From assembly GCA_900617105.1 (NCBI GenBank), contig UYFQ01000794.1, forward strand, positions 1-34,548: DNA of 34,548 bases. The letters run 5' to 3'. The DNA comes from Hydrurus foetidus. Lineage: Eukaryota. Below the pieces are notes generated by a model. That model was not told the DNA's origin, ran no database searches, and was given only the letters and a program-made list of their open reading frames with translations. A program made the position numbers and the translations under genes. Positions within the stretch are counted from its first letter, which is position 1, and each line of letters begins with the position of its first letter. This document shows, one piece after another, positions 3,743 to 33,245 of this stretch.

Positions 3743-3976
3743 ACCCCTGTACAGATACAATTTTTTAATTCCTTGTATGCACCTTTTGTATTTTCTATTT
3801 TTTTGTGGTTTGTCCTTATAACGCAGTCGATACAGCGTACAGTTTATGGATTAATTTGTACGCTGTATCGTTGAAAAACCATTCGTATTTGGTCACATTG
3901 TCCAATACATTTTTTAAGTGGAACGATGCATTTGGAGTCTAGTGCGACCATTTAACATAATTTAGAGGCAAAAAAG

Positions 3977-7378: not shown

Positions 7379-7595
7379 TGCTGAGATCAGGAAAGGTTTT
7401 AGGTGGCGGCAATACTGAGATATGTGACTTTAAATGAAGTCAGATTGTGAATTGTATCATCTACTGTGTCGGAGAATTGCATACAGTAGAATTGCTGTTT
7501 TACTGTACAGGAATTTTTTGGACTGGATACGACGGGTTTATGCGTCATAAAGATGAACCAATACACTTTTTTTGTATAAAAAACGTTTGATGTAC

Positions 7596-7613
7596 GCGTC
7601 ATAAGGAATAGCC
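7596..7613 (-). repeat. Right TIR of Harbinger
   Basis: GCGTCATAAGGAATAGCC followed by TTA. Confidence 0.9.
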
Positions 7614-7616
7614 TTA

Positions 7617-9055
7617 GTGGAGTCAGATAGTGCCACCAGTTCCGCCTCTGTGCTCGACATGGTCACGATCTGCTGCTTGGCTGACTTGCTATGCACCGCA
7701 CCACGCTCTCCGACTACCACACAGCTCCCGGTGTGCGACTTCCCATCTGCATGCACCCCATACGCTGCATCGATCAGTGCACTCACTGCGATCTCCTTGC
7801 TCCCAGCTGAGAACACTAACCCCCTGTCCCTTGTCGCGCTCACATACTTGAGCAGTCTGTCCAGCTTCACGAGGTCATCCGATGTGCACCGAGTTACACA
7901 AGTCGCCAAATATGCCACCGCAGTCAGACAGTCCAACCTCGCACGCTTCGCGAGATACAGCATCTTCGCCACCAGGCGATGGAACTTGATACGCTGCTCC
8001 TCGGTGGCCATTTCTGCATCCTCTCTCACTTCGAACAGTCCCTCTGTCGCCGGTGTCCTCGCACCCCCCTTCGCCTCGCTTTCCTTGAGCATGTCCTCCA
8101 CGTAACCGGTCATCGACACGCGTGCAACACCTGTGGTGGTAAGGTCGAACACCATGCCTAGGTAGTGTACTACAGGTCCATCCTTCCTAGTGATATCGCC
8201 GTACCTTCTTTTTAGCCCGCTAGCCACTGACTCAATCATTGCACCATTCTTGCTAGTCACCATCAGGTCATCCACATGTACTGCGATGATGCACTGCACC
8301 CCGTATTCATCATGCTTGTTAAACACACACATGTCGTGCGCATTCAGTATGTACCCTAGTTCCGATAGACTCACCCTCAGATTCTCGTACCATAGCGCGG
8401 CCGACTCCACGCACCCGTACAGCGCTTTATCCAGTCGCACCATCACACACCATTTGTGGTCTGTAAACCGTGAGTATCCCGGTGACAGTCTGATCATGAT
8501 GTTCGTCATGTTCCTGTCTAACCTCATATGCACCGGTAGTCCTGTTGTCATATCTGCGTTCAGGAAAGCACCGCTGATATCAATCACAGTGATGCTTCTC
8601 CCCTCGTGTGCTGCGATACTTAACAGAGTGAACACTGAACACGTCGCAACAGTAGGCGCGGACAGGTCATCATACAGGTCACGATCCTGCTGATCGCCTT
8701 CTGCAACAAGACGTGCCTTCAGCTTCTCGAACTCGCCACTCGCGAGGAACTTCTCCTTAAGAAACATACTCGACCTGATGTTACGCCGCTTCTCGTCCGG
8801 CGATAGCTCTTTCACATCGACCGGTTCCCACACCTTCTTGTCAACCATTTCCCGTAACTCTTTCTCTATCACACTCCCTCCAGCATCACCCCTTGTGCGC
8901 AGCGCTTCGTTCACCGAGATATTGAGCACGTAGTCGCCCCAGTCTGTACCGTCTCCATCGTAGTTGCGCGCCAGCAGCGCTGTCCCTCTCCCGTTCCTGA
9001 AGAAATCTATCACCGCATGCTTATTCAGGCCGTATCGCTGAGGACTCGCATACAC
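7617..9055 (-). pseudogene. pol: Copia-B reverse transcriptase and N-terminal RNase H
   Basis: KLKARLVA.G, IDISGAFLNA, KALYGCVES, VHVDDL, IDAAYG..DGKSHTG, SSTEAELVA. Confidence 0.95.
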
Positions 9056-9130
9056 TGGTTGCGACTTATTCGCACCACTCAGTGCATCCCTGGAATCAGT
9101 GTGGTCGTCCCACCCGCCACCTGCCGCTGT

Positions 9131-11926
9131 TTAGTCTACTGGTACTCCCCTCTCATCGACAACTCCGATTTCATTTGCGGGGTCATCATGCGGTCCCGCT
9201 CGCATGCCGTTCATGCTGGCTATCAGGTCGTCCATTACGTGGTCGGACTCAATGTCATGTACATGGTGTGTCGGTTCACTATGATGCTCGCTCACATCGA
9301 GCTGATTCGGCTCGTCTAGTGCCCCACCGCTATCGTACTGCTGCTCCCGGTAGTCACCCCCATTTTCAACCGGTTCACCCCCACTGTCCGGTCTCTCTTC
9401 TATCACTTTCTGTTCCTCATCTCCGTCTAGCGGTAGTATGGATGGGTCTACACCGTCGTTCACCGTAGGCTCGATCGTGTCTGGTAGGTCCCTCCTAGAG
9501 TCTCCGTCCTGTTTGTACGACAACGGTCGCTGGTACAGCTCACCTTTACCTTTCACTCGCCCGTCGGCTAGCGCAAGTTCGTTGAGCCTCTTCATCACCG
9601 ATTCTGGCATCGGTAATATTCTAAATTGGTCCCTATTCACCAGTCGTCCAGTACTGAGCGAGAGCATTCTCACGGACCCTGTACGGTTGCCAAGCGGGAG
9701 CATCACCACGCAGTCTTCTGTGCGACTCCCTAGTCCTGCATCTGTGTTTGGTACGGTACACTGCGCGTAGTCACCAAACGAACAACGAAAATCTCGCTTA
9801 CCATCCGGCTTCCTCCCTCTAACTGCCTCGCGGGGACTTGGGCCGTATTCCCGTAAACCGGCCGGTTCGTAGTTCAGCCTAGATATACAGTACAGTACAC
9901 ACATGGCTATACCCACGGTCGACAGGGTGAACGGCAGGTGGTACGCTACGTGAGCCCGTACCCTTTCTTTAATACTTCTTATTCTTCTCTCGATTCTAGC
10001 CACGTGACTGCCGGCTCCACTCACGTCGACTTCAACTCCGAGTTTTCCCAACTCGTCGACAAGGCTGGTAACCGCCCCCTCTCCGTCGCTCATGATAATC
10101 GACGTCCTAAAGTTTTGCGACGCGAGGACACCGAGGAAATGGTTGATGCCGATCTTGACTTGCCCTGCTGTCCTCGATCTTGACTTCAGCTGTGTTAAGA
10201 CTGTATGCGATAGTTAGTCCTAACGGAGTAGCCACCCCAACTAGAATAGCTAATTTCTCTATAAACATAATGTCAATCGATAACACCTGATCCCGTTGTA
10301 AGATTTTTGTGCTCACGGTTATATCGGGGACGGCTGTAGCTCTCTTTGTCGTTTTACCCTTCAGCGATGCGATGTCCTTCCCCCATATTGCGTCTGCGAT
10401 CTGGAAGTCTCTTGCTGTCACGTCAAAGTTGCTCCCGCTATTGACGATTGACATCGCTTGTTCTACCGTCGGGAATCCCATTCTAGCGAGTAGCTCGCGA
10501 GCCCGCCTGCCCTGCTCTATTTCGCGTTTTGTAAATGCCTTTAAATTCTCGACTAATGTCGTGACAAGTGTGCTCCCGTGCTCCATCTCTCTCCAATCAC
10601 AGGAATAGAATCTTCCCTCGCTCCCAACGACACGCTTTCTTCCGAAGCGATAGATCCTCGCGCTTCCCTTCGGCTGGAGAGTGAAGCAGTCGCTCAGGTG
10701 GTCGTGCCGAATCGACGCCCCTGAATCGACTTGGGAAGCAAATGACACAATGTTTGCTGAGGCTGATCCGCTGTAGTACACCGTCCCAAATTCTCCGAAC
10801 TCTCCTTCCCGATCGACTGACACTCCCGCTCCCTGTTGAATTCCGCTCACTTTTATTGTCCTCTCGGACTTTCTAATGTCGGTAAGCAAATCAGGATTGT
10901 TGAATATATTCAGTGATGCCTCGTTGTCTAATAGCACGTCGAATCGCGAGAAGCAGCACACTTCGTCTGCAGCCACAAGTGCTACTCCCCATTCGCTCGA
11001 TTCACCTTCATACTCCTCGTCCGACTCCCCCGCCGTGACGTGGACTTTTTCTGATGACGATTTCTTTTGTGGGCAATCCCTCGCGTAGTGCCCTTTAGTT
11101 TCGCATTTGTAACACTCCACATCCGCTATTGATTTCTTACTGCCCCCTCCGGCTTTCCCCGCTTTCTTCTCAGCCGAGTCCTTAGTCATAGTGACATGTG
11201 CACCTTCGGCAACGTACGCCGCGTTCGCACCCGCAGGTGTCGGAGTGGGTGTGTGAACGGGTACTCGGTCATTCCACTCTGACGAGATGTGGAATGCTAG
11301 GGCGAGCGTGGTGGGGAACGCACCCGGTTTGCGCCGTAGCGCGTCGTGCTTCATGTCGTCTAGCATGACTTTGTATCGACGGATGTCGAGTTTCCCTAGG
11401 AAGTCCACTGCTCGCTTTGACTCCGATACTGCGGCGATCCCCACGGCTGCGTTCGCTGTCACCTGTTCATCAAATCTGTTCTTGAAGGTGACGATATATT
11501 CCCTCTCACCTTGCCTCATGGACCCGTACTTACTCTCCTGCTCGTGTTGATTGTACTCTTGCAGTGACTCGTCTCCACCGTACATGTGTGTGAGGTGGGT
11601 TCTCCTGATGAGTGTCCACAGCAGAACACAATCCAGGTTGTCATACGCGGTCTTAAACACTTCCTCCTCCCTCACCTTACTCTGTGCTAGTAGCGACATA
11701 CGCTTCCACATCATGGGGTACATCGTACGTTCGTTCTCATGTTGCGTTTTGACGTCCCTCTTCCTCTGAATATAATCGTCCTCCTTAAACTTCGTTCTCG
11801 AGCGTTCCGACGCTTTTCGTCTTCTCTCGTTTCTCGCCAGTCTGGCGGCGACACGAGCAGGTTGCGCAGCGGCGTACACTACGGCCTCTGGGTCAGGTGC
11901 TGGCTGTGGTTGATCGTCGACCCCGT
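9131..11926 (-). pseudogene. gag-pol: Copia-B gag, protease and integrase (frameshift near 10180; 5' end cut by the G1 insertion)
   Basis: CYKCETKGHYARDC knuckle, VLLDNEAS protease motif, integrase D,D,E in SIDIMF / SDGEG / IERRIR. Confidence 0.92.
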
Positions 11927-12137
11927 TGTGGTCCGAGAGGGGATGGAAGAAGAGTAGATTTGGCAAGAAAGGATCTCTTTGAGTTACAACAGGGGGAAGC
12001 TGTCTATGGGATAAACAACTGAAAAGTTGCACTGAAAGGTTAGTGATGTCAGGATTGACATCTCAAACTACCATACATCTACAAGCACGTATGTACCGTC
12101 AGAGGGTCCGGGGTCCGGAGACCCCGGAACCACTACA
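11927..12137 (-). repeat. 3' LTR of G1 (211 bp, TGTAGTGG...GACCACA)
   Basis: Preceded on minus by the purine tract AAGTAGGGGTAG; the copia gag frame resumes directly after; ends CCACA like the other gypsy LTRs. Confidence 0.8.
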
Positions 12138-15400: not shown

Positions 15401-16370
15401 CATTGGTCTCAGGCGGTGGGGCGGCCTGGATCACTTGGGGTGCCCCTACTTGAGCCGGAGCTGTAAGGGGACCTGTCCCCAAAGGGATTGCCTGTGGGCC
15501 ATAGCTTGCTAGCTTTTCCTCCGCCTTCTTTTTGTTCTTTGCTGCTTTCCTCTTCTGAGACGCAGCGCGTTTCTCATACGTTAGTTTATTGTCTGGTGCC
15601 GGCGAAGCTCGCAGGTCTTCTGGAGTTGTCTCAATGAGAATCGTGTCCTTAGTCTTCTTGTCAGCTGCAGTTTTGCGGTCGTAAGCCTTGGACGGGCCTG
15701 ACTTCGCGCCAGCAGGGACAGGGGACGGTTTCAGAAGTAGGCCATAGGTGGGTGGAGTAGACTCGGTCGGGAAACCCAAGGCAGTTGGTGTGAGAATGTT
15801 GAACTTATATTTATTAAGGGAAAGACGTCCTATGATCAGGTCTACGGCGGAGTCAGGGTTGACTCTGGCCTGGAGGTACACCGTGTGGATCTTGTTGTCT
15901 TTATAAAGAAAAGTTACGCCTATGTCGACTACTGCAGTGCTAACAAAACAGTCGCTGTTGAGACCCGAGCACACAGTAATAGGCTCGTCAGACTTATACA
16001 TATGTGCCGAAGCACCTAGGCGAATCATGAAAGCTTCAGAAATAAAATATCCGGCCACGGCTCCGGTATCCAAAAACGCTAGAGCCTTGACCTCTCTGGT
16101 TTGCACCACTGAGGGATCCGAGCACCCTTTAGGCTGTGAAGCGGAAACAGTAACAGAGAGACAGTCTTTAGCAGTTAGAAAATGATCGACATTATCCACG
16201 TACAGTGGCATGACAGGTGGCATCTCGAACGATGAGGGTGGGGCAAGCATCTCTTTCGTCGACACCGGCCTGTTAAGTCGAGGAGCAATGGTGGTAAGAA
16301 CAGTAGTCATCATAGTGTACTTACTTCTCTCTGGGGAGCGGTCACGTGCTACGGAGCGCTCACGTGGCTT
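12419..16370 (-). pseudogene. pol: G1 pol: protease, RT, RNase H, integrase (core deleted near 13280), chromodomain with stops
   Basis: FLDTGA, MDFRGLN, YLDD, TDASDYGIG, H-x5-H...CPCC, MDFIGP, FHIKWLNYDDTHNTWEP. Confidence 0.95.
16134..16324 (-). other. Predicted 191-nt gag/protease intron of G1
   Basis: GTAAGT...TTCTAAC...TTCACAG. Splicing gives AGA ACC TAA. Confidence 0.7.
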
Positions 16371-16586
16371 TGTGGCCTCACTAGGATCTAGGCACTGGAA
16401 GCGGAACGGCTGGGAGCGGGAGCAAGGGAAAGGGGGCTACGGGAGCTATTGCTGTGAAAAAATGTGGTTAGCTTACAGATAAACACAGCAGGTATCATGG
16501 CAATGAATCGGGTGGATCGGATCGTCCTCGATTCGATCCGAACGTACGCCTGTACCTGTACAGCCCGTACGGGTGTGCGGGTCACA
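16371..16586 (-). repeat. 3' LTR of G2 (216 bp, TGTGACCC...AGGCCACA)
   Basis: Homologous to, and the same length as, 30369-30584 (shared TGTGGTTAGCTTACAGATAAACACAG); adjacent PPT at 16587-16602. Confidence 0.88.
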
Positions 16587-16794
16587 GTGCCCCTCTCTCT
16601 CTAAAGGGGTGTACTAATGAACAAAATTCATCATCAAAATACTAACTATGAATAACTAACTAACTAATTGAATAACTATTTCAGACTAAGAACTGAAAGT
16701 TCCTTACTGAATAAACCTCCTTAAAATCCCTGAGGATCCAATTTAGGAGGAATCTTTATGATTTAGTTAATCAATTTTTATTTTATTTTACCGG

Positions 16795-19700
16795 TTAACG
16801 GTAGTTTGCGATGAATTCGCGTGGTATTAAGTGTTTGAGGTTCTTTTTGATTAAGAACTCATGTACTTTTTGCGCTTTACGCATGTGTGTCCACGGTTCC
16901 CATGTATTGTGTTCATGGGTGTAGTTGAGCCATTTCACATGAAATGTGAGTGATTTGTATGCTCTTATGTTTCCTTTCATTTCTAGGATTTCCTCTATGA
17001 AGAATTCCAGATAATCTCTACGAGCAATGTCAGTTGGATCGACATGCGTAGGATCAAAGTGAAACGGTTTTAGTTGGGTCATGTGGTACAACTTTTCTTT
17101 GTGTGTTACCAGATCGAGTAATGTATACTCTGCGAAGTTATGGCTGACAACTCGCATTGGGCCGCGCCACAGTGTGTGCATGCGCGTTTCTGGTGATGTT
17201 CTTTGTTGGACAAGTACAAATGTGTCGACTCCGAACTGTGTGACGTTGGGAGGTTGTTGTGCATTGTGCAAGTCGTCGGATTCTTTGAGTAGACGTGCGG
17301 TGATTTCGATGAGTTCATCTTGCAACGTTAACATTTTATCAGTTGACCGTGTGAGTGAGTCGAAATCTAAATCAATTTCATCTCTCGGAAGGAGGATGTT
17401 TGCGTCGAGGTCGATCGCGTTGCCGTAGATGAGTTGTGCTGGAGACACTTTCATCCGGTCATTTACGGTTGAATTTAGTATTCTTTGTACAAACGGTAAT
17501 ATTTCCGCGTAGTTTTCCGTAGTTGCCCGTTCGTATGCGTACGCGGTTATATGGCGATTGATTTCTTTGTTGATTCGCTCGACGATAGCGTTTTCTTCTG
17601 AACAGTATGGTAATATTTTGTTGTGTGTTGTTCCAACAATTTTCACAAACTCATCTATGATGTGGCTTGCGAAGTGGGGTCCATTATCTGATCGAAGTAT
17701 ACACGGTGAGCCGTATCGCCCCACGTGTTCTACAAGTGCTGTGCACGCTGATTTGGCTGTTGCATCAGGTGTTGCGTAGAGTTCGACAAACCTTGAGAAG
17801 GTGTCGATCATAACAAGGATATATCCTTTATCGGGAAATGGACCAATGAAGTCTATGTTGAGGCATTCCATTGGTTTGTAGGTTGAGGTTGTGTACCGGT
17901 ATGCGTTGATGGGATATTTCATCGCCGACATCTTTTGGCAACAAGGACAATTTTTAATGAATGTTTTTACTGCGTCACGCATTCCCAGCCATATGTTATT
18001 TGTTTTTTTAAATTACGCAGTGTGCGTTGTACACCACCATGTCCGACTATCGTGTTGTGGCACGTTGCAATTAGGTTATATTGCTCGGTCGTCATTGGTT
18101 TGTGTGTCAGAATTGCTGCTATTATTCCTGTTTTAGGTGGCATTCTGTTTTTACATAGGCGAGACATTGCGTCAGCAATTTCATTTTGTTTTCCCGGGAT
18201 GTACCCTATCGTATATTCTAGTTCCTGCAGGGCCATACGCCATCTGCCGACCATCTCGTTTTTATCCTTTTCTAGGAACGTAAGATTTTTGTGGTCTGTT
18301 AGGATTGTGAATTTACGGTCTCGTAGCAGTGCGTCAAGATAAGTACAGCAATAGTATAGCGCGAAGGCTTCTTTTTGTATTACTGACCATTTCAGTTGAG
18401 TCTTGGTAAGAGACTTGCTTACGAGAGCGACGAGTTGTTTTTCTCCGTCGACTTCTTGATACAAATAGCCGCCGATCCCGTAATCTGACGCATCGGTCAT
18501 GAGGGTAATGGGCGCTGTATCGTGTATGAAATATAATAAAGGACTCTTTGCAATTAGATCTTTTATCTTTTGAAAAGAATTTGCGGCGTCATCTGTCCAG
18601 ATTAGCATTGATTGCTTTTTCGCGGCGTGATCTATAATTTTGTGCAGTGGTGCTACCACGTTGGAGTGATTTGGTACATGGTCCCGAAAATAATTGGTGA
18701 GTCCGAGGAACGATCTTAGTTCAGTCGTCTTTCGTGGCATAGGAAAGTCGGTCACACCTCTTATCTTTTTGGAACTCATAGTTATACCTTCTTTAGATAT
18801 TTGTCTACCGACATATTCAACTATTCGCACATTTAGCTTTAGCTTTGCGGCTTTTAGTGAAATGTTTTTGTTTTCTAGGCGTTGAAAAAGGATTTCTAAT
18901 CGCTCGCAGAATTGATCAAATCCATTACCATAAACGATGATGTCGTCGAGGTATACTTCACAGATTTGGTATATTAGTCCTAAAAGGACTATTGAGGCCA
19001 TCATTTCTTGGAAATATGAGGGGGCTCTTTTGGGTCCGAAAGGTAGTCGGGTAAAGTGGTAGATGCCCATAAATGTTATGAAAGCTGTATACACACGTGT
19101 ACTTAGAGTTAACGGTGCTTGGTGATATCCTGCTGTGAGGTCTATTACACCGAATGTGTCTGCTTTTTGTGATCCTAATCTTGCTAACATTTGTTTAATA
19201 TTAGGGATTGGCCAGCTTGCTGATTCCGTTGCGTCGTTGAGGTGACGATAGTCAATACAGAATCGGTATGAACCGTCTGGCTTTGCCGCGAGTGTTACTT
19301 GCGAATAGTATGATGCCTCTGATTTAACTATTATACCCTGTTCAAGCATAGTTTCAACTTGTTTTCGGATTTCGACTTGTTTTCGTGTAGACGTTGGTCG
19401 TGGTGCTACGCGGTTTTTGAAAACTTTCCACTCTGGATCCCGTACGGGTAGTCCAAAGGGGGAATTCGCGCGGGCTCTGGTCCGAGTTTGTTGTTGAATA
19501 GCTTTATGTGTTTGACACAAATTGCTCTAATTTTTGCTTGTTGTTCAGGGGTACCATCGATTTGTATGAGATCGATGAGGTACATTTTGTCCTCTGTTGG
19601 ATTGTCTTGGAAAGGAGCGAAGGTATCCTTCGACTTGTAGTCAATCTCTTCGGGTCCGAAGGGTTGAACCTCTGGGAGTTCTTCACGCTCCCGGAGTAGA

Positions 19701-22519
19701 GCAGCAACTAAACCACGTGTTTGGGCTGGTGCCTTGGATGAGGGAGTAGGAGTAGCTAATTCCGGACTCCTGTCGGTTGTTACACCTAAATCATTTTGTC
19801 GGGGAGGTGACAACAAAACTGCTGCCTCGACCGTAGAGTGCAAAATGAACTCATCGGAATCTAGCCTAGCCGCTGCCGCAGCTAAGCTAGTGGGACACCC
19901 ACATGAAGGAGTGCATGTCTTGCTTGTACAAGCACCTCGAGCCACCAGGTCGTCTTGCCATCGACTGTTTGTGTCTGAGGGTTTTATCCCCTCTCGGCTA
20001 GTTGTAACCGGAGGTAAGGTTGGATCTGCAATACTTGTAACCGTGTCCAACTCTGCTTCTAGCATGAGTGGAACGTCCACGTGGTTTAATACCATGTTTG
20101 TGGATTGATTCAGTTTTTGCATTGAGTGAATTTTTTCATTTTCGATATTTCCGGAGATTGGAAGAATTCCGGAATAATTTTAACCAAATTTAGTTTTCTT
20201 ATTGTCTCCAATCCTAAGATTAAGTCGACTTTAGAATCTTCTGCAATTCGCACCGGAAGAGAAAAAGTGTATTTTAAATTGTTTTTGTTAAATGATACAA
20301 CAATATCAAGCACAGCAGTGGATTCAATACATTGATTGTTTAGACCCGAACACATCCATATGGGAGAGTCGGTGGTGCGGAGTTGGGGTTCACCACGTAG
20401 GCCCCGAAGGACTCTACGATTGATTACGTCCCCAACCTGACATCCGGTGTCGATTTGGGCTAAGGCGGCCATGCCGTTATTTTGGTCCATAGCTGGATGA
20501 GGATTTGGGTGGGGACCGGTCTCGATCGCGGCGATCTTTGTCTTTGTCCTTTTCCGCTTGGCGCGAGTCGTCTTTGCGGTTGGAATCGCGGTCGCGACTG
20601 TCAACGCGGTCGCCAAAGCGGTAGCCGGGGATGGGGTCTGAGGAAGATGTATTTTTACTTGTAAGTAATCATTAATCTCGTTAGGTATGATTGTTGATAA
20701 AATCATTTGCATGTTTGGCAAAATACGATTTTCCGAGATATTTTCCGCATACGGAATTTTGGACTCACGTTTTCCTTTGTACCCGCGGTCTTTGATGTCG
20801 CGAGTATCGTGATTTTCGTTGCGATCGGTGTCGCGATTGTCTTTGCGGTCGTTGTCGCGACTGTCTTTGCGGTCGTTGTCGCGGTTGGACCGGTCGTTGT
20901 TACGGTTGTTGTTGTTGTGGTTCGCTTTCTTGTTGTTGTTCTTGTTATTGTTGTTGTTGGTTTTGCGAGGATCTTCTTTTGCGGCGGGACCCATGTCATT
21001 TTCGACGTCGTCTGTTGGGTAGACATATGTTGCCGCGCCAGGATTGTTGGTGGTTCTGGTCATTTCGCCATTGAGGAGGACTTTTGGAACGAATTGGTCG
21101 TGGCCAATGCGCCTGAACTCTGTGGCCATCGATGATTGACTCCACGTGCAGCACGTGTTGTTGCAATGAGGGTTCATAAAATTGCGACAATCGTAGCGGT
21201 TGTGGCCGGCGCGACCGCAGGTGTGGCAAGTATCGACTGTTTTGCTCAACCCTGGGTAGGCGTCGGATTCGCGTTTGGGTATCGTGCGGTATGAGGCGGA
21301 GAGCTGCGTGACGTTGCTGGACGACAATGTGTCAGGAGTGATTTTGGTCTCGAAGTCGTGACGAAGACCACCCATGTTGGACGCGTTGATAACTCTTTGT
21401 CGAGCTTCACTGAGGCAGAGATTCATTCGGCACAACATGTCCGGGATGGAATCCTTCTTGTTGTTTCTTGTTTTGTCCTTTGTAGTTTTCATGAAATTTT
21501 CAGTGAACTTATTATCAAGAGGGAGCTTTTTGTAGATGATCTTACAGATCTCATGTTGGCGGTCTGCAGGGATATTGTCGTAACTTCCGTAGTATCCGAA
21601 GAGGATGTCTCGGAGTCGTGCAATTGCCGCCAACTCTGCGTTTGGGTTTTGCCATTTGATCTTCATTTGCCAGTTTTCAGGGCAAGGTCCAAGTCATAGG
21701 TAGACTCTGTGGCGCGATCACTGAAGAAGAGTTTCTTGAGATCGGTTGCCATGTCGCGAATGGACAGGAGTTTGTCGTCGATGATAGGCCAGGTTTGACA
21801 CATTTTGATTGTGTATCCGAGAGTCTTTCGATTTGGAAGCAGACTGTCTCGGATCACATGGAAAGCTTCGTCTTCAATTAGATCTTCCCAAGGCACATTA
21901 AACTGAGGGTGGTGAGCCTGTGTATAGAACTTTCGGGCTGTGCCGTCCATGTCCTTTAGTAATGTCTCACGTGTTACATAGAACACTTCCTTCATGTTGA
22001 TGAGGGAGGTTGTGAGTGCTTGGGGTGTTCTTTGTTGTTCGAAGGTTGTGTCTGCCTCTTCGGTTTTGCGCTTGCGGTTTGAAGTGGCAGCCGCTTTCGT
22101 GGAAGCTGTCGCTGGCTTCTTTGCAGTTGCTACCGTTGCTTTCGACGTTTTGGATCTGGTGGCACGCGTGGGTTTGTCTTCAGATTGAACGGCAGAGAGT
22201 GGTTTTGCCTCCCTTGTTTTGGCAAGGGCTTTGATTGGCATAGCCTTTTACTTTTTCGGTTTTGGTGACGGTGGGATTGACGCTTCCGACTCACTTTGAT
22301 CTTCCTCGTCCGATTTGGACTTGGTATCGTCGGGGTTGTTGTCTTCCTCTTCGTCCTCGTCATTGGTTTGTTCGTCTTCCGCCTCTTCCGAGGCGTTGTC
22401 AGACACCGAGACGTTATCATCGTCGGAGAGAATTTCCTTCGGAGATGTTTTGGTACCGATTTTGTCGTCGCCCTCTTCCGTTTGCTGACGATGAGGAGTG
22501 TAATGCTGAAGCTCCCGAC
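16795..22519 (-). pseudogene. gag-pol: G2 gag-pol with frameshifts (~21665, ~20115, ~19450, ~17975) and a stop (~22248); integrase-chromodomain part 16795-17982 is open
   Basis: CHTCGRAGHNRYDC, QIDTG, IDYRHLN, YLDD, TDASDYGIG, IDFIGP/RSDNG/IVERIN, FHVKWLNYTHEHNTWEP. Confidence 0.95.
20638..20768 (-). other. Predicted 131-nt gag/protease intron of G2
   Basis: GTGAGT...CCTAAC...CTTCCTCAG. Splicing opens a 53-codon RD-rich tail ending at TAA 20477. Confidence 0.8.
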
Positions 22520-22727
22520 TGTGATAGTACCGGGTCCAGGGTCCCGATCCTACCGGGTACCGACTCTACCGGATCCTACCGGGTACTACTACTGTACACT
22601 ACAGTTAGGCTGTCGTATCGTCGTAGCCATCTACAGCGTCCACGTAGAAGTTAAGTAGCTTCTAGCCTAGATACCTGTAACTAAGCCTACTTCCTCTCGC
22701 CCCCCTTTCTCCATTTGCCCGACCACA
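22520..22727 (+). repeat. 5' LTR of G3 (208 bp, TGTGATAG...GACCACA)
   Basis: The G2 gag frame runs up to 22519; TG...CA termini; size and 3' end resemble the G1 LTR. Confidence 0.8.
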
Positions 22728-23279
22728 ATAGCGCTATTATCCTCGGGAAAATTTCTGCTGCCTCTAATTCCCCTCTACTCGTCCCAACTTTAGTTACGAC
22801 TTCCAACACCTGAGTATTATTACTCACAACATCTTCGGAGTCGAAATTCTTGCTGAGCTACGCTCCAAGAACTTAGTTTTAAGTTAGCGAAAGTTGGGTT
22901 TAGCCTCTTTCCTCTTGGAACCCATTATTGGTGTCTTCAAAGTTCGTAGTTGGTTGAATTCGCGAAAGCCTTCACCACTCGACAATTTGAACATTGGATT
23001 CATTGCTAACGACACCAAATTAGTCTAAGGACTTCTTTTGGCTGGTGGGAATTACTTCCTTCATCCTTTACGGACACCAAAAATTTTCTCCACTCAAAAA
23101 TTGGCTTTCACGCCTAAGAGATTTTATCAACAAGAGTTGGTTGAAATCGACTTATTCGCTGTTACTTGCGTAAAGTATCCTCAAAGCTAACAAGGCGAAG
23201 CTCTGGCAAAAAATTTGACACAGAGATCCCTTCGTTGCTTAGACTTTGATAGATTTATAACGTCTTAAAGTCATATACC

Positions 23280-23970
23280 ATGGCAGATGACGACGAAGCA
23301 TCTTACCCTCGTTACGACGATGAAGGTAAACTCCTCGAACATCCTCCAGTTGATGAAACTGAGGAAGAGGAAGTGCTAGAAGAGGACGGGGGTATTTTAA
23401 ATGCCACCCAAACCTCACAGTCTTCAGTGGCGCAAACTATCCTGTTTCCACAGACTATGCAGATGCAGCGAGAGATATTCGTCCTAAAAGGCGATTACAT
23501 CACTCCGCAAGACGCTGAGAGCTTCTTCGAACAAGCCCAACGGCTGCCTCGCTTACGCATTAATGAATGCATGCAACGTCAGGCAATTGACTTGCTACAT
23601 GTCAAAATTATGACAGACACCGCTCCTTCGTCTCTGACACTAGAACAGAAGTTCGAATGGCAGAATATACTTGACATTGATTATGTTGCGAAACTAATCA
23701 TGCAGTATTTTGGCTCGAATAAACAACGAGACCATGCCGATCATACCCTCGCGGAACTTTTCGCTAAGGTACCATTTCATTACTCACTAAATTCCGATGA
23801 GGAAGAGTTGAGCACGTACATGGCGTACAAAGAATTGGTAACCAATTATGAGCGCACCCGCCGTATCACTCACAACCAACAGACGGAGTTGGTAACGATT
23901 TTGGAGAGACGACTTGCTCGTGGCAGTCGTATCCAATCAGACTACTTTGAGTCTAAGAGGGTTGACAATG
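23280..23970 (+). pseudogene. gag: G3 gag, N-terminal part
   Basis: ORF downstream of the LTR and leader; acidic N-terminus then a helical region like the G2/G4 gags; ends at the junction with the G4 integrase (end approximate). Confidence 0.7.
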
Positions 23971-26900
23971 TGCGGTGAGTAACCAGTACCAACGAGTCGA
24001 TTTCGAACGTTGTGTAGTCGGTTGAACCGCCTGCTTTGCGTTTCTCGCCCGCTTCTTTGAGTAGTTCAGCAGTGATTCTGATGAGTTCATCTTGCATCTG
24101 CATAATTTTCTCAGTAGAATGGGTGACATGAGCCATGTCTAAGTTTATCTCATCTCGAGGGAGAAGGATGTTGGCATCAAGGTCAATAGCATTGCCGTAT
24201 ATAAGCTTTGCTGCTGTTGACTGTGTCCGTACGTTGAATGTCGTATTTATAATTCGTTGTACGAATGGTAAAATTTCTCGGTAGTTTTCCGTAGTTGCAC
24301 GGTCAAATGTAAATGCCGTGATGTGTCGGTTAATTTCCTTATTCATACGCTCTACTATCGAGTTTTCTTGCGAAGAGTATGGTAGAATAAGGTTGTGTGT
24401 TGTACCGGCAACTTTTACAAATTCCTCGAGGATTTTGTTTACGAAATGGGGACCGTTATCGGATCGCAGGAATTTGGGAGCTCCGTAGCGACCGATGTGT
24501 TCTATTAGGCCTGTTACGGCCGATTTTGCAGTATTATCAGTTGTGGCTGATAGTTCGACAAACCTTGTGAAGGTGTCTACCATAACAAGGATGTATCCTT
24601 TATCCGGGAATGGACCAATAAAGTCTATGTTTATGCATTCCATAGGTGCATATGTTGATGTTGTGAAACGATGGGTGACGGGTTTTTGTTTGTCAGCAGA
24701 CATCTTTTGGCAACACGGGCATTGTTTAATGTATGCTCTTATATCGTGTCTCATGCCTTCCCATACTTTCCCTATTTTTTTTAGGTTTCGCAAAGTGCGA
24801 TTGAATCCTCCGTGCCCAACGGTAGAGTTGTGGGCACGCATTAAGTATGCATATATTTCCGCTGCAATCGGTTTGCAAGTAAGGATTGCTGTTATGATGT
24901 GTTTCGGCATCTTGTTTTTACATAGGCGTGACATTGCGTCAGCGACTTCATTATTTTTCCCAGGGATATACCCTATCGTAAAATCTAATTCCTGTAGCGC
25001 ACAGCGCCATCTTCCGACCATCTCATTTTTATCCTTGTGCAGGAAAGTAAGATTTTTGTGATCGGTCAGGATAGTAAACTTACGATCTCGTAGCAGGGCG
25101 TCGAGATAGTCACAGCAAAAGTAAAGGGCGTAAGCCTCTTTTTGTATTACGGACCATTTCAACTGGGTCTTGGTAAGAGATTTGCTTACGAGAGCGACGA
25201 GTTGTTTGACTCCGTCGACTTCTTGATATAAATAACCACCTATACCGTAATCAGACGCATCTGTCATGAGGGTAATAGGTGCTACATCGTCGATGAAATA
25301 TAATAAGGGACTCTTGGAGATAAGATCTTTGACTAACGTAAACGCGTCGGCCGCTTCGTCTGTCCAGACAAGCAATGTTTGCTTTTGGCGGCGTGATCTA
25401 TCATTTTGTGTAGCGGTGCTACCACATTTGAGTGATTTGGTACATGATCCCTAAAGTAATTGGTGAGACCGAGGAACGAACGTAGTTCAGTTGTCTTTCT
25501 TGGCATCGGAAAGTCAGTCACACCCGTTATCTTTTTGGAGCTCATTGATATACCTTCCTTAGATATTTGTCTACCAACATATTCAACTACTTTGACGTTA
25601 AGTCTTAGCTTTGCAGCTTTGAGTGAAATGTTTTATCTTCTAGACGTTGAAACAATGTTTCTAAACGTTCACAGAATTGGATGTGTCCATCAGCATATAT
25701 GATGATGTCGTCTAAATAGACTTCACAGATGCTGTATATAAGGCCAAGTAGTACTATTGACGCCATCATCTGTTGAAAGTATGATGGGGCCATCTTGGGA
25801 CCGAATGGTAGTCGTGTGAATTGGTATATACCCATAAATGTTATAAATGCGGTAAATACTTGTGCCGCCAGTGTTATTGGGGCTTGGTGGTATCCGGCCG
25901 TAAGGTCGATTACGCCGAATACGTTTGGCCGTTGCGCGCCAAGTCTGTATAACATTTGTTTTATATTTGGGATCGGCCAACTTGCAGATTCGGTTGCCTC
26001 ATTGAGGTTCCTGTAATCTATGCAGAATCGGAGTGAACCGTCTGGTTTATTTGCAAGTATTACTTGGGAGTAATATGAGGCATCGGATGGTTTTATTATT
26101 CCCTTTTTGAGCATTGCTACGATTTGTTTTCTGATTTCCTCTTGTCGCATCGTTGAAGCGACTCTGGGAGCACCCCGATTACGGAAGTGTTTCCATTGAG
26201 GTATGTTTACCTTTTTGAAATCGAAAGGGGGAATTCGAGCGGGTTCTGGACCCAGCTCGTTTTTGAAAAGCGATTTGTGTTTTATGCAAATCGCTTTAAT
26301 TTCGGCAATCTCAGTTGGTGTACCATCGATATGTATTAAATCAATTAAGTACATCGAATCGTTGTTTGGATTGTCTTGAAAAGGAGCGAAGGTATCCTTC
26401 GACTTGTAGTCGATCCCTTCCTTATCACGGAAAGACCGAACCTCAGGGAGGTCTTCGTCTTCCTCCCTAAGTAGAGCTGCCGCAATACCACGCGTTTCGG
26501 TTGGTGTTATGGATGAGGGTGTAAGAGTAGCTACTCTCTTACGCCTTTTGGTTTTTACACCAGATCCATTCTGACGCGGAAGTGGCAACACTAGTGTTGT
26601 CAAATTGGTGGTGCGTAGTATGGACTCATCGGAAGCAAGCTGAGCAACTGCCGTCGCTGAGCTTGTAGAACACCCGCATGAAGAGTTGCAAGTCTTGTGT
26701 GTACAAGCACCTCGAGCTACCAGGTTATCCTGCCGGGGAAAGTCTGTAGTCGAGGGATTTATGCCCTCCATGACAGAAATGCCAGGAGGTAGTGGGGACC
26801 CTGGGTCAGCTATTTTACTTTCCTCTTGGACAGTGTCCTTTTCCGTTAGTAACGGTAAAGGAATTTCCGTTTGGATTGTGTCTGCTGACGCTGATTCGGC

Positions 26901-29867
26901 TGATATTACCTCGGGGGGTAGTTCGGTGTCTATGAGTACCGTGTGTGGTACTTGTGCATCGTCCTCAGCCGAGAACGACACCCTTTGTTTTTTTAGCGGT
27001 GAAGCTGGTATCGCACTAGGCGTTATTTTATCGAGGTTCTGGAAGAACTCTGGTATTATTTTTACCAAATTTAAATTTTTTATAGTCTGTAATCCTAAGA
27101 TTAGGTCGACTTTTGACTCCGGAGCTACTCGGACAGGAAGACTAAAAGAGTGTTTTAAATCGTCTTTATTAAATGATACAACAATATCAAGCACATTTGT
27201 AGATTCTACACATTGATTATTTAAGCCACTACACATCCACATGGGTGAGTCGGACTTCCTCAAGTGGGTTTTGCCACGGAGGCCCCGAAGGACTCTACCG
27301 TTGATGACGTCCCCGACTTGACATCCAGTGTCGATTTGGGCTAGGGCTTCCATGCCTCTAGTTTGGTACGTATTGGTTGGAGGAGGAGGAAGAAGAGGAA
27401 GATTTATGTCTGTCCCCCTCCTTGCTCTCCGCCTGGTGCGAGTTGTCCCTGCGATCGTCAGGTCGGTCGCGACTTGGTTTGAAATTTGCGATCGGATCTG
27501 TGGTAAAGATATGTGAACTTGTAAGAAATCATCTATGTTTTCAGTTAGTACAGCTGATAGAAGTTGTTTCATTGATGGTAATACTCGAGCGTACTCGATT
27601 ATGTCCGTACTTGGGTTAGCAAGTTGTGACTTACTTTTTCCCTTGTAGTTGGAGCTCAACTTGTTCGTGTTGGAACGATCGTTGTCCCTATCCGGTTGAG
27701 TCTGGTTGCTCTTGTACTTGTTGTACTTGGTGTTGTTGTTGGTGGCCAGCTTTTGTTTCTTGGTCGGACGGTCGTCTTGGGCTCTCCCTGGAGGAGAGAA
27801 GTCGTTCTCAACATCGTCAGATGGGTACACGTAGGTAGCTGCCCCGGGGTTGTTGGTGTCCCGGGTAAGTTCCCCGTTGATGTACACATTTGGTACGAAG
27901 AATTCGTGACCAATCCGTTTGAAGTCCTTTGCCTCCTCAGACTGCGACCAAGTGCGATGGCTACGGTTGCAGTGAGGGTTCATGTGGTTTTGGCATTCGT
28001 AACGGTTGTGTCCCTTTTTGCCACAGGTGTGACAGAAGTTGGTCGCCCGGCTGAGGCCGGACGACTCAGGGTCCACCTGACGTTTTGGGATTGCCTTGTA
28101 GGCGTTAGCCGAGTGGCTGTCACGGTGAGGTGCGACCTCAACGTCGTCTTGGTCGGTTGGCGTGAGCTTTGACTCGAAGACGAAGTCGAGACCTCCCATG
28201 TCCTCCGCGTCTTTGATCATCTGGCGTGCTTCGCCCAGCATGACGACAAGACGCGTGAGCATTTTGAAGATGGTATCTTTCCCGGTCTTTTTCGTCTTAC
28301 GTTTTGTCTTTGCCATGAAATTGTCTGTAAACTTGTTGTTCTTTGGCAGCTTCTTGTAGAAGGCCTTACAGATGTCATTTTGCATGTCGGCATCGATATT
28401 GTCGTATGACGTCCAGAATCCGAGTAGGATGTCACGGAACTCAGAGAGAGCTCTGTCTTCAACAGAAGGATCTTTCCAGCTGATGCGGAATTTGCAATTC
28501 TTCAACTTCATTTCGAAGTCGAAATGGGAAGACGTACGTTTGTTTTTGTAAAAGATCTTTTTAAGATCATTTGCAATGTTCTTTAACGTTAACGTTTTGC
28601 CTTCGACCGTTGGCCAGGCGAGACAAGTCTTGGTGTTGTAACCTGTCTCGCTTTTGCATCGAAGCAACTGGTCGCGGATCGTTTGGATGGCATCCATTTC
28701 GATTAGCATTTCCCAACTGGTTAACATACCGGGGCGGTATGCTTGTTCGTAAAACGCTCTTGCTGCTTTATCAGCGTCGTCGAGAAGTTTTTCTCGAGTG
28801 AGGTAGTACGCCTCCTTCATGTTGATGATGGAGGTTTGCAAACCCGCTTTGCGTTGTGGAGGGGAATCCTCTTCCGAGTTTTCCGCCTTTTGCGCGCGGT
28901 GTGTTTTACCGGATTTGGCATCGGCTTTGGTTTTCACCTTTTTGTCCTTTGGGGCGGGTTTGGGACCCGCCTTTGGGGACTTTTTCTTGGCGAGGGGTTT
29001 TATCTTAAGGGACTTCTTGTCCTTGGGCTTAGACTTTTCGGGTTCGACCTCCTCGTCGTCTTCGACTTCGACTTCAGCTTTCGCCTCATCGTCGTCGCTG
29101 TTGTCGTTCCCGTCGTCGTCCCCGTCACCCTCTCCGTCGTCCCCGTCGCCACTACTTGCGTCGGACTCGTCGGAGGAGCTGTCGGGGTTGCCACCATCGC
29201 CTCCCGTGTCGTTAACGTCGTCGACGTTACTGTCGTTCTCGTCGTCGGACTCGTCGGGGGGTTTGTCGTCGTCGTTGTTGTTGGCATTGTCGTCACCGTC
29301 GGCGTCAGCCTCCGGATCTGACTCGGCGTCGGCCTCGGCCTTGCCGGTGTCGGATGCCTTTTTTGTTGTGACTTTGGCGTCGACTGATGGTTCGAACAGA
29401 TCGTCCTCTGCACCGATTTGTTGCAGTCGCGGAGGGAGTATCGAGGTTTCTCCCCCTCTTTTTAGGTACCCGCGGGTATCGAGAGGAGAGTCTGTCTCGC
29501 CCTCGGCTTCCTCGGGTGCCAACCCGAGGAGCTCGTCGTTTGAGGGCTCTAAAGCGTCGGCAGCAGCTTGTGCAGCAGCTATTTGTGCTTGCTCTAGTCT
29601 GTGAGCTTCTTGCATTTCTTTTGTTGCTGCCATGACGCTTTGGAAGAAAATTTCCTGGTCCTCAAGACGAGTTGGGGTAGCCGAAACATGTATTGCTTCT
29701 TTGGCCAGAGCCTGTATCGATTTCTCGATGTTTTGCTTTACAAGGGCCTGCTCCGCTTTGTGCTTCTCCTTCTCAGTGAGAGGAGCACTGCGCGAAGCGC
29801 TTGGAGCTGAAGAAGTAGAGGCGGCTGCGTTAGCAGCCGCTTTCTTCTTTATTTGGGCCCTTGTCAT
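23970..29867 (-). pseudogene. gag-pol: G4 gag-pol: gag, PR and RT in one 1420-aa frame, frameshifts near 25630 and 25378, 3'-truncated integrase
   Basis: CHTCGKKGHNRYEC, QIDTG, IDYRNLN, YLDD, TDASDYGIG, RSDNG, IVERMN. Confidence 0.95.
27498..27634 (-). other. Predicted 137-nt gag/protease intron of G4
   Basis: GTAAGT...TACTAAC...TTTACCACAG. Splicing opens a 46-codon tail ending at TAG 27358. Confidence 0.82.
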
Positions 29868-30368
29868 CGGACTTTTGTCTTGAGCTTGAAACGTCTTGAT
29901 CTTGGGGTCTTGGACAGCGACGGAACTCGGACGCGGCGCTCTATGGAGCTGAGGATGTGATCCCGCAGCTATGATGTCGTGGGATCGTAGGATCCTTTAA
30001 ACGATGGAGCTGTTGGTGGTTTACTTTCGCGCGATTTCGTCGGAAATCGCTCGAAAAGTTGCCTGGCGGTTTCTCTAACGATGGGACTTGCTTTTGCTCG
30101 GCTCAGAGCTACTTGCTTCGTTAGGCTTCGAGTTTTGAAGCCGTCACGATTTTGTCGCGAAAATATCGACGACTCGAACTTTTTAACGAAAGCGTTTCAG
30201 AGGCTGTCGATTAGACGTAGCCTTTGTAGTGTCTTTCGACGTTGTTTTCACTTGTTGCCAAGTTACTAGCTTGTTTGCACGCCGTTTTACGGGTCGTGGC
30301 GATGTTTTTGGGAAGCGTTTTGGAACTGGTCTCTAAAAAGAGCACCAAGTTGGTCCAAATACTAGTAT

Positions 30369-30584
30369 TGTGGCCTAACTATGGGCTCGGCGGTGGGACT
30401 GCTGGGACAGGGCGCGGGGGCAAGAGGAAGGCAGCTGTTGTGCTGGTGCTGTTGGCTAAAGATGTGGTTAGCTTACAGATAAACACAGAGATAGGCAAGT
30501 CATGAATCGGATGGCTCGGATCGTCCCCGATCCGAACCAAACGTACGCCGGTACCCGTACAGCTGTACAGCTGTGTGGGTCACA
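30369..30584 (-). repeat. 5' LTR of G4 (216 bp, TGTGACCC...AGGCCACA)
   Basis: Diverged homologue of the G2 3' LTR with the same termini and length. Confidence 0.88.
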
Positions 30585-31059
30585 GGAGTCCTCCATGATG
30601 CGCATCATCTCTGTCGTCTCCGCGGCGCGCGAGGCTATCCGAATGAGCAGGAGCTACGGCAGTCCTGATCTCATCTACTCGTTTCCGAGTACCGCAGTAC
30701 CCCCTCTACGTGCATCACAGAAGAGGGAGAGTACAATCGCGATTCGCGATGTGGATCCGCCTAGCGGCAAAAGCACCTTAGCGGTTCGTACCTCGGCTCC
30801 TCGAGTCTGCCGCTCGTGTGGCAATCCTGCACACATGCTTCCCGCATGCCCTGTGTTATATTACACTGACACAAACAACGATCACTCCACTCAATGGTCT
30901 GAATCAGCTGTGGGGCAGGCATGGTTAGCCAACGGTGAATCCATGTGGCAGGAAAGGTTAATCCTTCCTGGTTACGAAAACGGTCAGCGGCACCATCCCG
31001 CGGGTTCCCCTCCTTTCTTGATGTTCACTAACAAGAAATCAAAGAATAACCATGGGTCG

Positions 31060-31215
31060 GGTAACCAAAACAACCCCAATCAAGGCAACCAAGGAAATAA
31101 CCGCGGTAACCAAGGTTATGGTAACCAGGGTAACCAAGGGAACCAAGGTAACAACCGCGGTAACCGAAATCAAGGTTATGGTAACCAGAGTGCTGGTAGA
31201 GGCTACCAAGGGGGA
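31060..31215 (+). repeat. Coding tandem repeats (GGTAACCAA units) giving an N/Q/G/Y-rich low-complexity Gag tail
   Basis: NQGNQGNNRGNQGYGNQGNQGNQGNNRG. Confidence 0.85.
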
Positions 31216-31291
31216 AATCCCCGTGGGGGTAAATACAACCCACCCCAGGGGGGGCCCACCTCGTCTTCCGATTCAGCGGGACAAAATCAAG

Positions 31292-31455
31292 GTATAAATG
31301 ATTATGATGTTGATTCATCTGACATTTTAAACCTCCTGGATGTTGTGTCGTTCATTTCACATGTCGATACACTTCCAACGCTTATTCAAGATGAATATTT
31401 GCATGACCCGTCTACCCTTCCTTCTAATTACTTAAACGTTACTGTTTCGGTACAG
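31292..31455 (+). other. Predicted 164-nt gag/protease intron of G3
   Basis: AG|GTATAA...TTCTAAT...GGTACAG. Splicing gives CAA GGA TAA. The donor is weaker than in the other three. Confidence 0.65.
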
Positions 31456-32759
31456 GATAAGGATACGGATAACCAGACTAGCGTACGACGCATTGTGGGC
31501 AAGGCCGTGTTGGACACCGCCAATTATTCTGAGGATTTTATTTCTTTCATTATGATTCCTCTGTTATGAGGCTCCTAAAGCCATAACTGTTTGCTCTGGT
31601 CTTGATGGCCATTGCTATATAAATAACGAAATTATTAATTTGACTCTCCAGTTTCATTCTTATGATGGCGAATGTCACAAAATCCCTTTAACCTTGCGAG
31701 TTAATCGGAATACAGATATTGAACTTTTGTTAAGTCGCAACACTGTAAATAAATATGATTTTATGTCATTAACACCTTTTGCTTTTGGTATCTCTCCTGA
31801 GCTCAGTGCGGAGAACAAAAGGAAAAGGGATATTCGTTGGCGCGAATTTGAAGAAAGGGAAGCGATAACAAAGCTTGACCCGCTTCACTGGAGCAAATAC
31901 ACCAGGCGTATGATATCGGAGGGAGTTCTACCCGAAGAACCAGAGGTAGAGTCGATTACCCCAACATATGACTTGTTGAAGGGAATCACACAGACTAAAC
32001 TCGCTCTGAAAAGAGACGCATACGGTTTTTGCCTTAAGCCAACCTCAAAACCAAAGAAGGCCATTTTGCACGCACCTCTAATTGAGAAAGTCGTGGGGTC
32101 AGGTTGTCATGCAACGTTCACGTGTAGCGTTACCCAGGTTGGTTCCGAGGGAGTCATGACCCAAAGTCCATGTGGTGATGTGGGTTCAGCGACTGAGTGT
32201 CACGACTAGACTCGCAAAACGTACGGGTGATACCCCGCACCTAGGTGGTGACTCGATTCCCACCCTCACACATACCTCTGGGGACTCTGTTACATCAGAC
32301 TATGACGTGGAAGCCGTATGGCCAAGCGGTGTCGCACTCTCCGTTGACGAGATTGACAATGACAAGACTGACACTTTCGCACCTTTCTTGCGTGACAAGA
32401 CGTGCCGAAATGTACCGCCCAATGGGCCGGATGATTTTTTGTCACAAATCCATTTTGAGGGGGATGAAAGCCTTCAGAAGGATTTGCGTACTCTCTGTTC
32501 AGAATTCGCTGATATTTTCAGTGATAAGCCAGCCCCGCAAGCTGCACATCTCAAACCATTTGAGATCAATTTGCCTAAGCAAAAATGGGAGGTTCCATCG
32601 AACCGCACACCAGTGCGCCCCCAATCCTCTAAAAAGGAACATTATCTCCGCACTTCAATTGAAGAGATGCTGGAGGATGGTGTGATCGAGAGGTCGAACG
32701 CTGCATACTACAGTCATCCTGTAATGGTAAATAAGACAGCCGATACATATCGAACCTGC

Positions 32760-33245
32760 TGTCAGTCCAGCATATTCATGCATGATCTGTTAGCATAGTT
32801 TCATCTGTAGATTAGCATTCACATGTCACAAGTAGTGTAGCGCTTCCTCACCCAAAACACCGCCATACACTGTTGTGTACATACGCTCATCGTTCTTCTA
32901 GCGATATCCCCCTTCGGGGCCATCACCAAGCATCCGGATTTCCACCAGGTATCCGGTTTCCACCAAGCATCCGATTTCATGGGCAGCGAGGGTTCCGCCC
33001 ATTGCTCAATCGCCAACTTGAATATTCGCTGAATATATTTCCACTTCGGCGATCACCATTTCATGCACAATGGATGCTTTGCTTTGCTTCTTTGATGGTT
33101 GTCTTCTCTGATATCATCGCCAGTTGTTTTACTACTTGATCGTTGTAAGTAAACACGTCTTCCGAGACCACTTCCATCAGTCAGTCTTTCCTTTGCGCTT
33201 CCGCAGCCAACAGGTAGCTCGCTTCACTCCACAGTCTGACTCACA
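32760..33245 (+). repeat. 5' LTR of Copia-C (486 bp, TGTCAG...CTCACA) with a ~18-bp triple repeat near 32920-32980
   Basis: TG...CA termini between the broken RT and the PBS; ATCCGG.TTTCCACCA units. Confidence 0.8.

Follow-up and report, generated by a model that had tools for sequence, protein, structure and literature searches.

A predicted frame-shifting intron and a dual-coded exon at the gag–protease border of Ty3/gypsy retrotransposons

We propose, with a probability of about 0.8, that a Ty3/gypsy retrotransposon (E2) sets its Gag:Pol ratio by optional splicing and that the exon following its predicted intron is read in two frames. Unspliced RNA would encode Gag–Pol and would also serve as the genome, and the predicted protease made from it would carry the exon bases as a loose loop. 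Splicing out the 131-base intron would shift the frame and yield Gag with a 53-residue charged tail that is out of frame with pol. The spliced RNA would supply an excess of Gag, and the same splice would probably disable the protease by removing its first strand. Judged from sequence, the exon is a real, selected dual-coding exon in which the Gag frame is favoured.

The window and its elements

The window (the whole 34,548-nt stretch of DNA analysed here) is a nest of eukaryotic transposons that contains four Ty3/gypsy elements (E1 to E4), a Copia element and a piece of a Harbinger-like transposase (Table 1). In E2, which the preliminary description called G2, the domains follow the order protease, RT, RNase H, integrase, as in Ty3/gypsy (Metaviridae) elements, and the top solved-structure matches of its RT and RNase H were to Ty3 (E = 1e-69; next best, 1e-30). 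This copy is defective, with at least four frame changes, and its gag–protease frame, in which no Pfam family was matched, is broken on both sides. A chromodomain lies at the integrase's C terminus (PF00385, 35.6 bits against a cut-off of 25.1). We do not claim that E2 is a chromovirus, because chromodomains were gained independently in other Gypsy lineages, according to the available parts of two sources (PMC12477816, PMC5348765). The second, archaeal-type RNase H that is the hallmark of Chronos, an oomycete Gypsy element, is absent from E2, which has no room for it: the single RNase H stretch ends at residue 435 and the integrase zinc domain starts at 481. Within the window E2 has a 3′ LTR with its purine tract and E3 has a 5′ LTR (30584–30369); neither element shows both.

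Table 1. Positions of the Ty3/gypsy elements and their predicted features in the window
Feature	Coordinates	Strand	Description
E1, Ty3/gypsy element	12.5–16.4 kb	minus	
E1 predicted intron	16134..16324	minus	191 nt; splice leads to one codon, then stop
E2, Ty3/gypsy element	16.4–22.5 kb	minus	
E2 gag–protease open frame	20110..21693	minus	Gag C-half, CCHC knuckle, intron region, insert, protease DTG
E2 end of gag exon 1	20769..20960	minus	N-rich and RD-rich repeats
E2 predicted intron	20638..20768	minus	131 nt; GTGAGT donor (20768), CTAAC branch-like site 47 nt before end, CAG acceptor
E2 dual-coded exon (predicted)	20477..20637	minus	161 nt; Gag tail after predicted splice, protease loop insert if unspliced
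E2 Gag stop	20477..20479	minus	TAA (TGA in many family copies)
E2 protease core after Gag stop	20161..20476	minus	Pol-frame constraint
E2 RT, RNase H, integrase, chromodomain	16795..19526	minus	Two broken frames; PF00078, PF17917, PF00665, PF00385
E2 3′ LTR	16371..16586	minus	216 nt, TG...CA, preceded by purine tract; 75% identity to E3 5′ LTR
E3, Ty3/gypsy element	24.0–30.6 kb (23.9–30.0 kb also given)	minus	
E3 gag–protease–RT open frame	25605..29996	minus	Single frame, 1463 aa
E3 predicted intron	27498..27634	minus	137 nt; GTAAGT donor, TACTAAC branch site, CAG acceptor
E3 dual-coded exon (predicted)	27358..27497	minus	46-residue RD/S Gag tail; TAG at position matching E2 stop
E4, Ty3/gypsy element	23253–23967 and 30585–32800	plus	Split around E3
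E4 predicted intron	31292..31455	plus	164 nt; weaker, non-consensus donor picked by eye; splice leads to one codon, then stop

The E2 3′ LTR abuts E1 at 16370, 46 bases upstream of the predicted E1 donor, and the remainder of E1 gag was not seen in the window. E4 is interrupted by E3, and a contig of run X2 links 23967 to 30585 with 19 letters between them. No 3′ LTR of E3 was found in the window; after its 5′ LTR comes a 10-base palindrome (30368–30341, minus strand) and no obvious tRNA primer site. A deep, circular-looking contig of run X20 (organism B) spans the E3 gag core only (27936–28633) and returns after 698 bases. The Ty1/Copia element (7538–12062, minus strand) has a CCHC knuckle and RT and carries no GTRAGT donor at its gag/protease border. 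We also observed a second, Copia-like gag fragment (1285–2262, minus strand; weak PF14223 match), an inverted pair among AT-alternating repeats (3109–3433) and the Harbinger-like transposase fragment (3956–4681, plus strand; PF04827).

At least half of the words of 20001–30000 were present in 17 sequencing runs, drawn from six studies. Most of these runs are metagenomes of freshwater, biofilm or sediment, and one may be the source sample. Scans of viral contigs and prokaryote genomes for DNA relatives of the element found nothing, and one locus from the metagenome scan (L001) was discarded as a false bacterial match.

A predicted intron and a second reading frame in E2

Removing the predicted E2 intron shifts the frame, so that Gag gains an RD/S-rich tail and then meets a stop. 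The splice from 20768 to 20638 reproduced exactly the 53-residue tail of the preliminary description, which ends at the TAA at 20479–20477, and placed the 161-nt exon at the coordinates given there. The tail had been described as a continuation of the RD repeats upstream of the donor, and we found a 12-mer and an 11-mer common to exon 2 and those repeats. When retained, the intron codes for a linker and for YLQVKIHL, the first predicted strand of the protease. In the open gag–pol frame the exon bases read TPSPATALATALTVATAIPTAKTT..., and 62 residues separate the acceptor glutamine from the catalytic aspartate.

Base composition was less informative than first supposed. The contrast between an AT-rich intron (33% GC) and a GC-rich exon (58%) held, but a gag-like character of the exon cannot be read from its GC content, as the 100 nt past the stop, which encode protease only, reach 60%. 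The open second frame in the exon is likewise not above chance by itself. When the Pol insert was re-encoded synonymously 20,000 times, the second frame stayed open in 17% of cases for E2 and 21% for E3, and elsewhere in pol the second frame has open runs of up to 84–91 codons. This chance-level openness, together with the short words that exon 2 has in common with the upstream repeats, is what would be expected if there were no second product, the insert being a protease loop that arose by repeat expansion and the RD frame its compositional shadow. The pattern of variation, however, exceeds chance.

Constraint changes frame at the Gag stop codon

We aligned contigs of four runs from four studies to 20400–20890 and used all 32 variant rows at a frequency of at least 5%. 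Within the exon, 11 of 14 variants were silent in the Gag frame, including the change of TAA to TGA, and 2 of 14 were silent in the Pol frame. The expected Gag-silent share is 0.23–0.28 (P = 4e-5 to 1e-3, for only 14 variants that include two adjacent pairs and were scored against one defective copy). Gag third positions held 10 of the 14 variants. Past the Gag stop (20400–20476, 77 bases), all seven variants were silent in Pol. Because most exon variants are Gag-silent and those beyond the stop are Pol-silent, the constrained frame switches sharply at the Gag stop codon. In the intron, three of eight variants were Pol-silent.

The predicted splice signals were also preserved. None of the 32 listed variants touched the GT or the AG, and a variant in the branch site left it branch-like; the base preceding the donor switches between arginine and serine. 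The stop varied only between TAA and TGA among E2 family variants. The sole listed indel was at 20769, outside the exon, and none at a frequency of at least 5% fell inside it. Frequent stops in the alternative frame, or constraint in the pol frame alone, had been named as results that would count against a selected Gag frame, and neither was found. The enrichment for Gag-silent rather than Pol-silent changes, the stop kept as TAA, TGA or TAG and the sharp switch at that stop make it extremely improbable that the RD frame is a compositional shadow without a product. Antisense coding was also considered and rejected; in E2, the antisense frame that has this wobble in common contains two stops.

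Comparison of the E2 and E3 exons gave 20 identities in the Gag frame (z = 6.9) and 14 in the Pol frame (z = 2.8). The two tails are alike in outline, with PI at the start, a DR/RD core, a serine run and YxP before the stop. A further family member, read by hand from a contig end, finishes with SSSSNKYEPK at the same stop.

Intron candidates in all four gypsy elements

The preliminary description had presented the insertion as unique to G2. This did not hold: E3 has the same intron, a 46-residue RD/S tail and a T/A/R/P insert, and only E1 and E4 are without the long tail. In all four gypsy elements, GT comes after base 1 of a codon, a branch-like site lies 32–51 nt before the intron end and the CAG acceptor is the glutamine codon that follows the first strand of the protease; each of the four candidates is 3n+2 in length. 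The sense strands of E1, E2 and E3 contain one, two and two GTRAGT motifs, respectively, one of which in each is the predicted donor, and E4 has none. The pyrimidine tracts of the candidates are modest (0.60–0.73; the 229 other YAG sites gave 0.48, and 22% of them reach 0.60). Dual coding is thus family-wide rather than special to G2, with the splice itself a prediction from sequence.

We also looked at joints on 15500–32000 in runs X18, X19, X20 and X2 (three of 24 runs are presumed to be RNA). Of 23 joints 15 were listed, and none of these equals one of the four introns. The sole joint on 20400–20890 came from a DNA run and differs from the intron. Contigs of X19 cross the E2 and E3 introns unspliced at a depth of 3–7, in a run that may be DNA and in an assembly form that drops minor species.

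Ribosomal frameshifting could in principle open the second frame or end Gag in place of splicing. It is the usual Gypsy route, according to the available part of PMC3735527, and in E3 the donor is immediately preceded by an in-phase G GGA AAA heptamer at 27642 (27642–27632, minus strand), with a stop at once in the shifted frame. A shift at this heptamer would end Gag before the exon, however, and cannot explain selection on the exon; E2 has no heptamer at its donor. Reaching the tail would require a shift in the last ~30 intron bases, a stretch that varies in E2, and a slippery site near the acceptor was checked for and rejected, none being found in E2 or E3. A minority frameshift would, moreover, yield less Gag than Gag–Pol. 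We therefore regard frameshifting as very unlikely to account for the second frame. As a separate observation, a YKGKS motif recurs in several relatives, and the E3 heptamer could offer another way of making Gag alone.

Protein relatives and history of the tail

A search with E3 residues 600–980 identified nine relatives among 4017 candidates. All nine close relatives carry a T/A/P/R/K-rich insert of 42–70 residues after L-x-Q, and in all eight that are long enough a donor footprint, [S/R][K/E]S, which is what GTRAGT encodes in phase, lies ~42–46 residues before the glutamine. The intact relatives are single frames of 1886–2086 aa.

A Gag-silent change alters position 2 of the Pol codon, this position being the Gag wobble. 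The inserts of seven reference families contained 104 substitutions; 60 affected position 2 and 17 affected position 1, with a further 26 being multi-step and 1 ambiguous. The position-2 share exceeded the expected 0.53 (P ~5e-6), and without the E2 family the split was 42 to 10; the protein families are related and the inserts low-complexity, so these P values are optimistic. In control regions the splits of position 2 to position 1 were 17:26 in the intron, 18:32 in the protease core, 17:11 in exon 1 and 20:15 in the PR–RT linker. The insert did not differ significantly from exon 1 alone (Fisher P = 0.087) and differed marginally from the PR–RT linker (P = 0.041).

A profile search gave 230 matches, 150 of them among the matches listed; 157 proteins were analysed, of which 87 allowed anchoring and 50 extended far enough upstream. 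The strand-plus-glutamine pattern was present in 29 of 50, against a shuffled mean of 9, with leucine in place of glutamine scoring 28. Among distant relatives the donor footprint was weak: it occurred in 17 of 30, where shuffling gave a mean of 9.9, and two rows were mis-anchored and nine matches came from close kin. A stop-compatible residue pair before the protease glycine occurred in 16 of 17 rows, against a background of 0.24; we did not count this as independent evidence, since these rows are related and the pair could also reflect turn residues.

The insert ranges from 12 to ~90 residues among relatives, and in E1 and E4 a tail of one codon suffices. Such latitude, in an exon that is purine-rich and repeat-like, would suit a real splice whose tail is kept as an RNA signal, such as a purine-rich splicing enhancer, or by stop avoidance, with no role for the peptide. 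An RNA motif would not, however, explain why changes concentrate at Gag third positions, and the E2 and E3 tails share a peptide outline, which leaves this explanation unlikely. A selected tail peptide on a spliced Gag remains our preferred reading.

In a protease tree of 45 rows, 15 long-insert rows formed one branch together with E2 and E3 (support 99/97), placed among short and middle forms. The tree omits 48 anchored rows that were too short, without the strand pattern, duplicate or mis-anchored. Grouping all 17 long rows as a single clade was rejected (p-AU = 0.023); two long labels in the tree are doubtful, P0043 being mis-measured and P0098 degenerate. A short-stop design appears to have been lengthened later to give the long tail, in a tree that is midpoint-rooted without an outgroup and does not itself give the order of events. 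In the long-tail branch, Gag (E3 at 28800–29996, minus strand, and relatives such as P0003) carries an acidic and basic disordered N-terminal extension of ~350 residues before the capsid-like region; such an extension was not seen in E4.

Fold of the protease

A model of the E2 domain built from an 83-sequence alignment had a mean pLDDT of 83; an earlier model from a 12-sequence alignment was poor (pLDDT 43) and was set aside. The intron-encoded strand occupies residues 9–14, in a block with pLDDT 88, and the insert scores 51–66 and the core 89–97. Foldseek placed the Ddi1 protease best (E = 1.2e-5) and retroviral proteases next, with TM-scores of only 0.3–0.46 by query length. In sequence searches of solved structures, a shallow profile gave nothing and a deep profile gave a weak match to Ddi1 (E = 0.014). 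With its DTG motif and modelled retropepsin fold, the E2 protease appears to be a retropepsin.

In retropepsins the first strand pairs as a hairpin with the strand that runs into DTG, and by analogy the insert would be an extension of the hairpin loop. The protease frame likely tolerates the exon bases as a floppy loop in the modelled structure. It had been inferred from the outset that the Gag frame is selected and that Pol tolerates the insertion; the variant counts and the low-confidence insert within a confident retropepsin fold both bear this out.

Implications

Most likely the tail prolongs Gag at its RNA-binding, mixed-charge end, a putative role. Its RD/RS composition resembles the mixed-charge domains of RNA-processing proteins. 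More broadly, a whole Ty3/gypsy lineage of freshwater eukaryotes may have reinvented a BARE1-type switch with its acceptor inside the protease. One branch would then have grown a selected 30–90-residue RD/RS tail into a protease loop, present on Gag and not on Gag–Pol and acting as an SR-type mixed-charge domain that tunes its own splicing or condenses with RNA, with the enzyme frame as the passenger. We offer this fuller scenario tentatively, as possible but rather doubtful.

Production of more Gag than Pol by splicing in single-frame elements is documented for Copia, and here it would extend to a Gypsy lineage with a precise junction. The exon would be a natural case of overprinting in which the tail of a structural protein is selected and the enzyme pays through a loop of 12 to ~90 residues, and the short and long tail forms stand side by side, open to comparison. 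For annotation, the gag of these elements would be mis-called without the splice.

Comparison with known systems

Retroviruses have a gag/pro overlap in which p6 lies over the transframe region, so that a C-terminal Gag peptide shares bases with the Pol frame close to the protease. There the second frame is reached by ribosomal frameshifting and lies upstream of the mature protease, whereas in E2 it would be reached by the predicted splicing and would lie inside the protease fold.

Our literature search turned up no Gypsy case and no selected overprinted tail; subscription journals, repeat-database entries and supplements lay largely outside it, and a prior mention is possible. The available parts of PMC10085805, PMC7730604, PMC12477816, PMC5348765 and bioRxiv 10.1101/2024.04.02.587720 contain no comparable Gypsy case. 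A 2025 review, in the part available, singles out two intron-bearing plant elements as notable, Ogre and EVADE (PMC12786077), and the one Gypsy Gag RNA described in the available part of a triticale study is without an intron (PMC7765848).

Among plant Ty3/Gypsy elements, Ogre splices between ORFs and CRR removes RT (PMC3735527, available part). Both are Gypsy splicers like E2, but in that text they are not described with a gag/protease intron that gives Gag alone and an overprinted tail. In EVD and other Arabidopsis Copia elements, splicing removes the protease, and conserved splicing of this kind was not found in Arabidopsis Ty3/Gypsy elements, as far as the available part of that paper goes (PMC5580714). 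The predicted E2 splice resembles EVD/shGAG, on that account, in coupling a frameshift to a Gag-only RNA and in being conserved across a lineage. It differs in that the EVD intron takes out the whole protease and is followed soon by a stop, whereas the E2 acceptor sits inside the protease.

The closest likeness is to BARE1, a barley Ty1/Copia element with a 104-nt GT–AG intron at the start of the protease, the removal of which stops Gag three residues later (PMC3735527, available part). Like BARE1, the elements studied here would combine a single gag–pol frame, found intact through RT in the 1463 aa of E3, with a short GT–AG intron of 3n+2 length, AT-rich against GC-rich flanks, and a frame-shifting splice that leaves Gag only; such a border intron is predicted in four of four elements. 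BARE1 splicing was shown by RT-PCR, according to the same source, and is predicted here. The quick stop of BARE1 is matched by E1 and E4, and E2 (53 codons) and E3 (46) have a long second-frame tail instead. E2 is a Gypsy and not a Copia element and would work like BARE1 without being a member of that group, which suggests that a Gypsy lineage converged on the BARE1 design.
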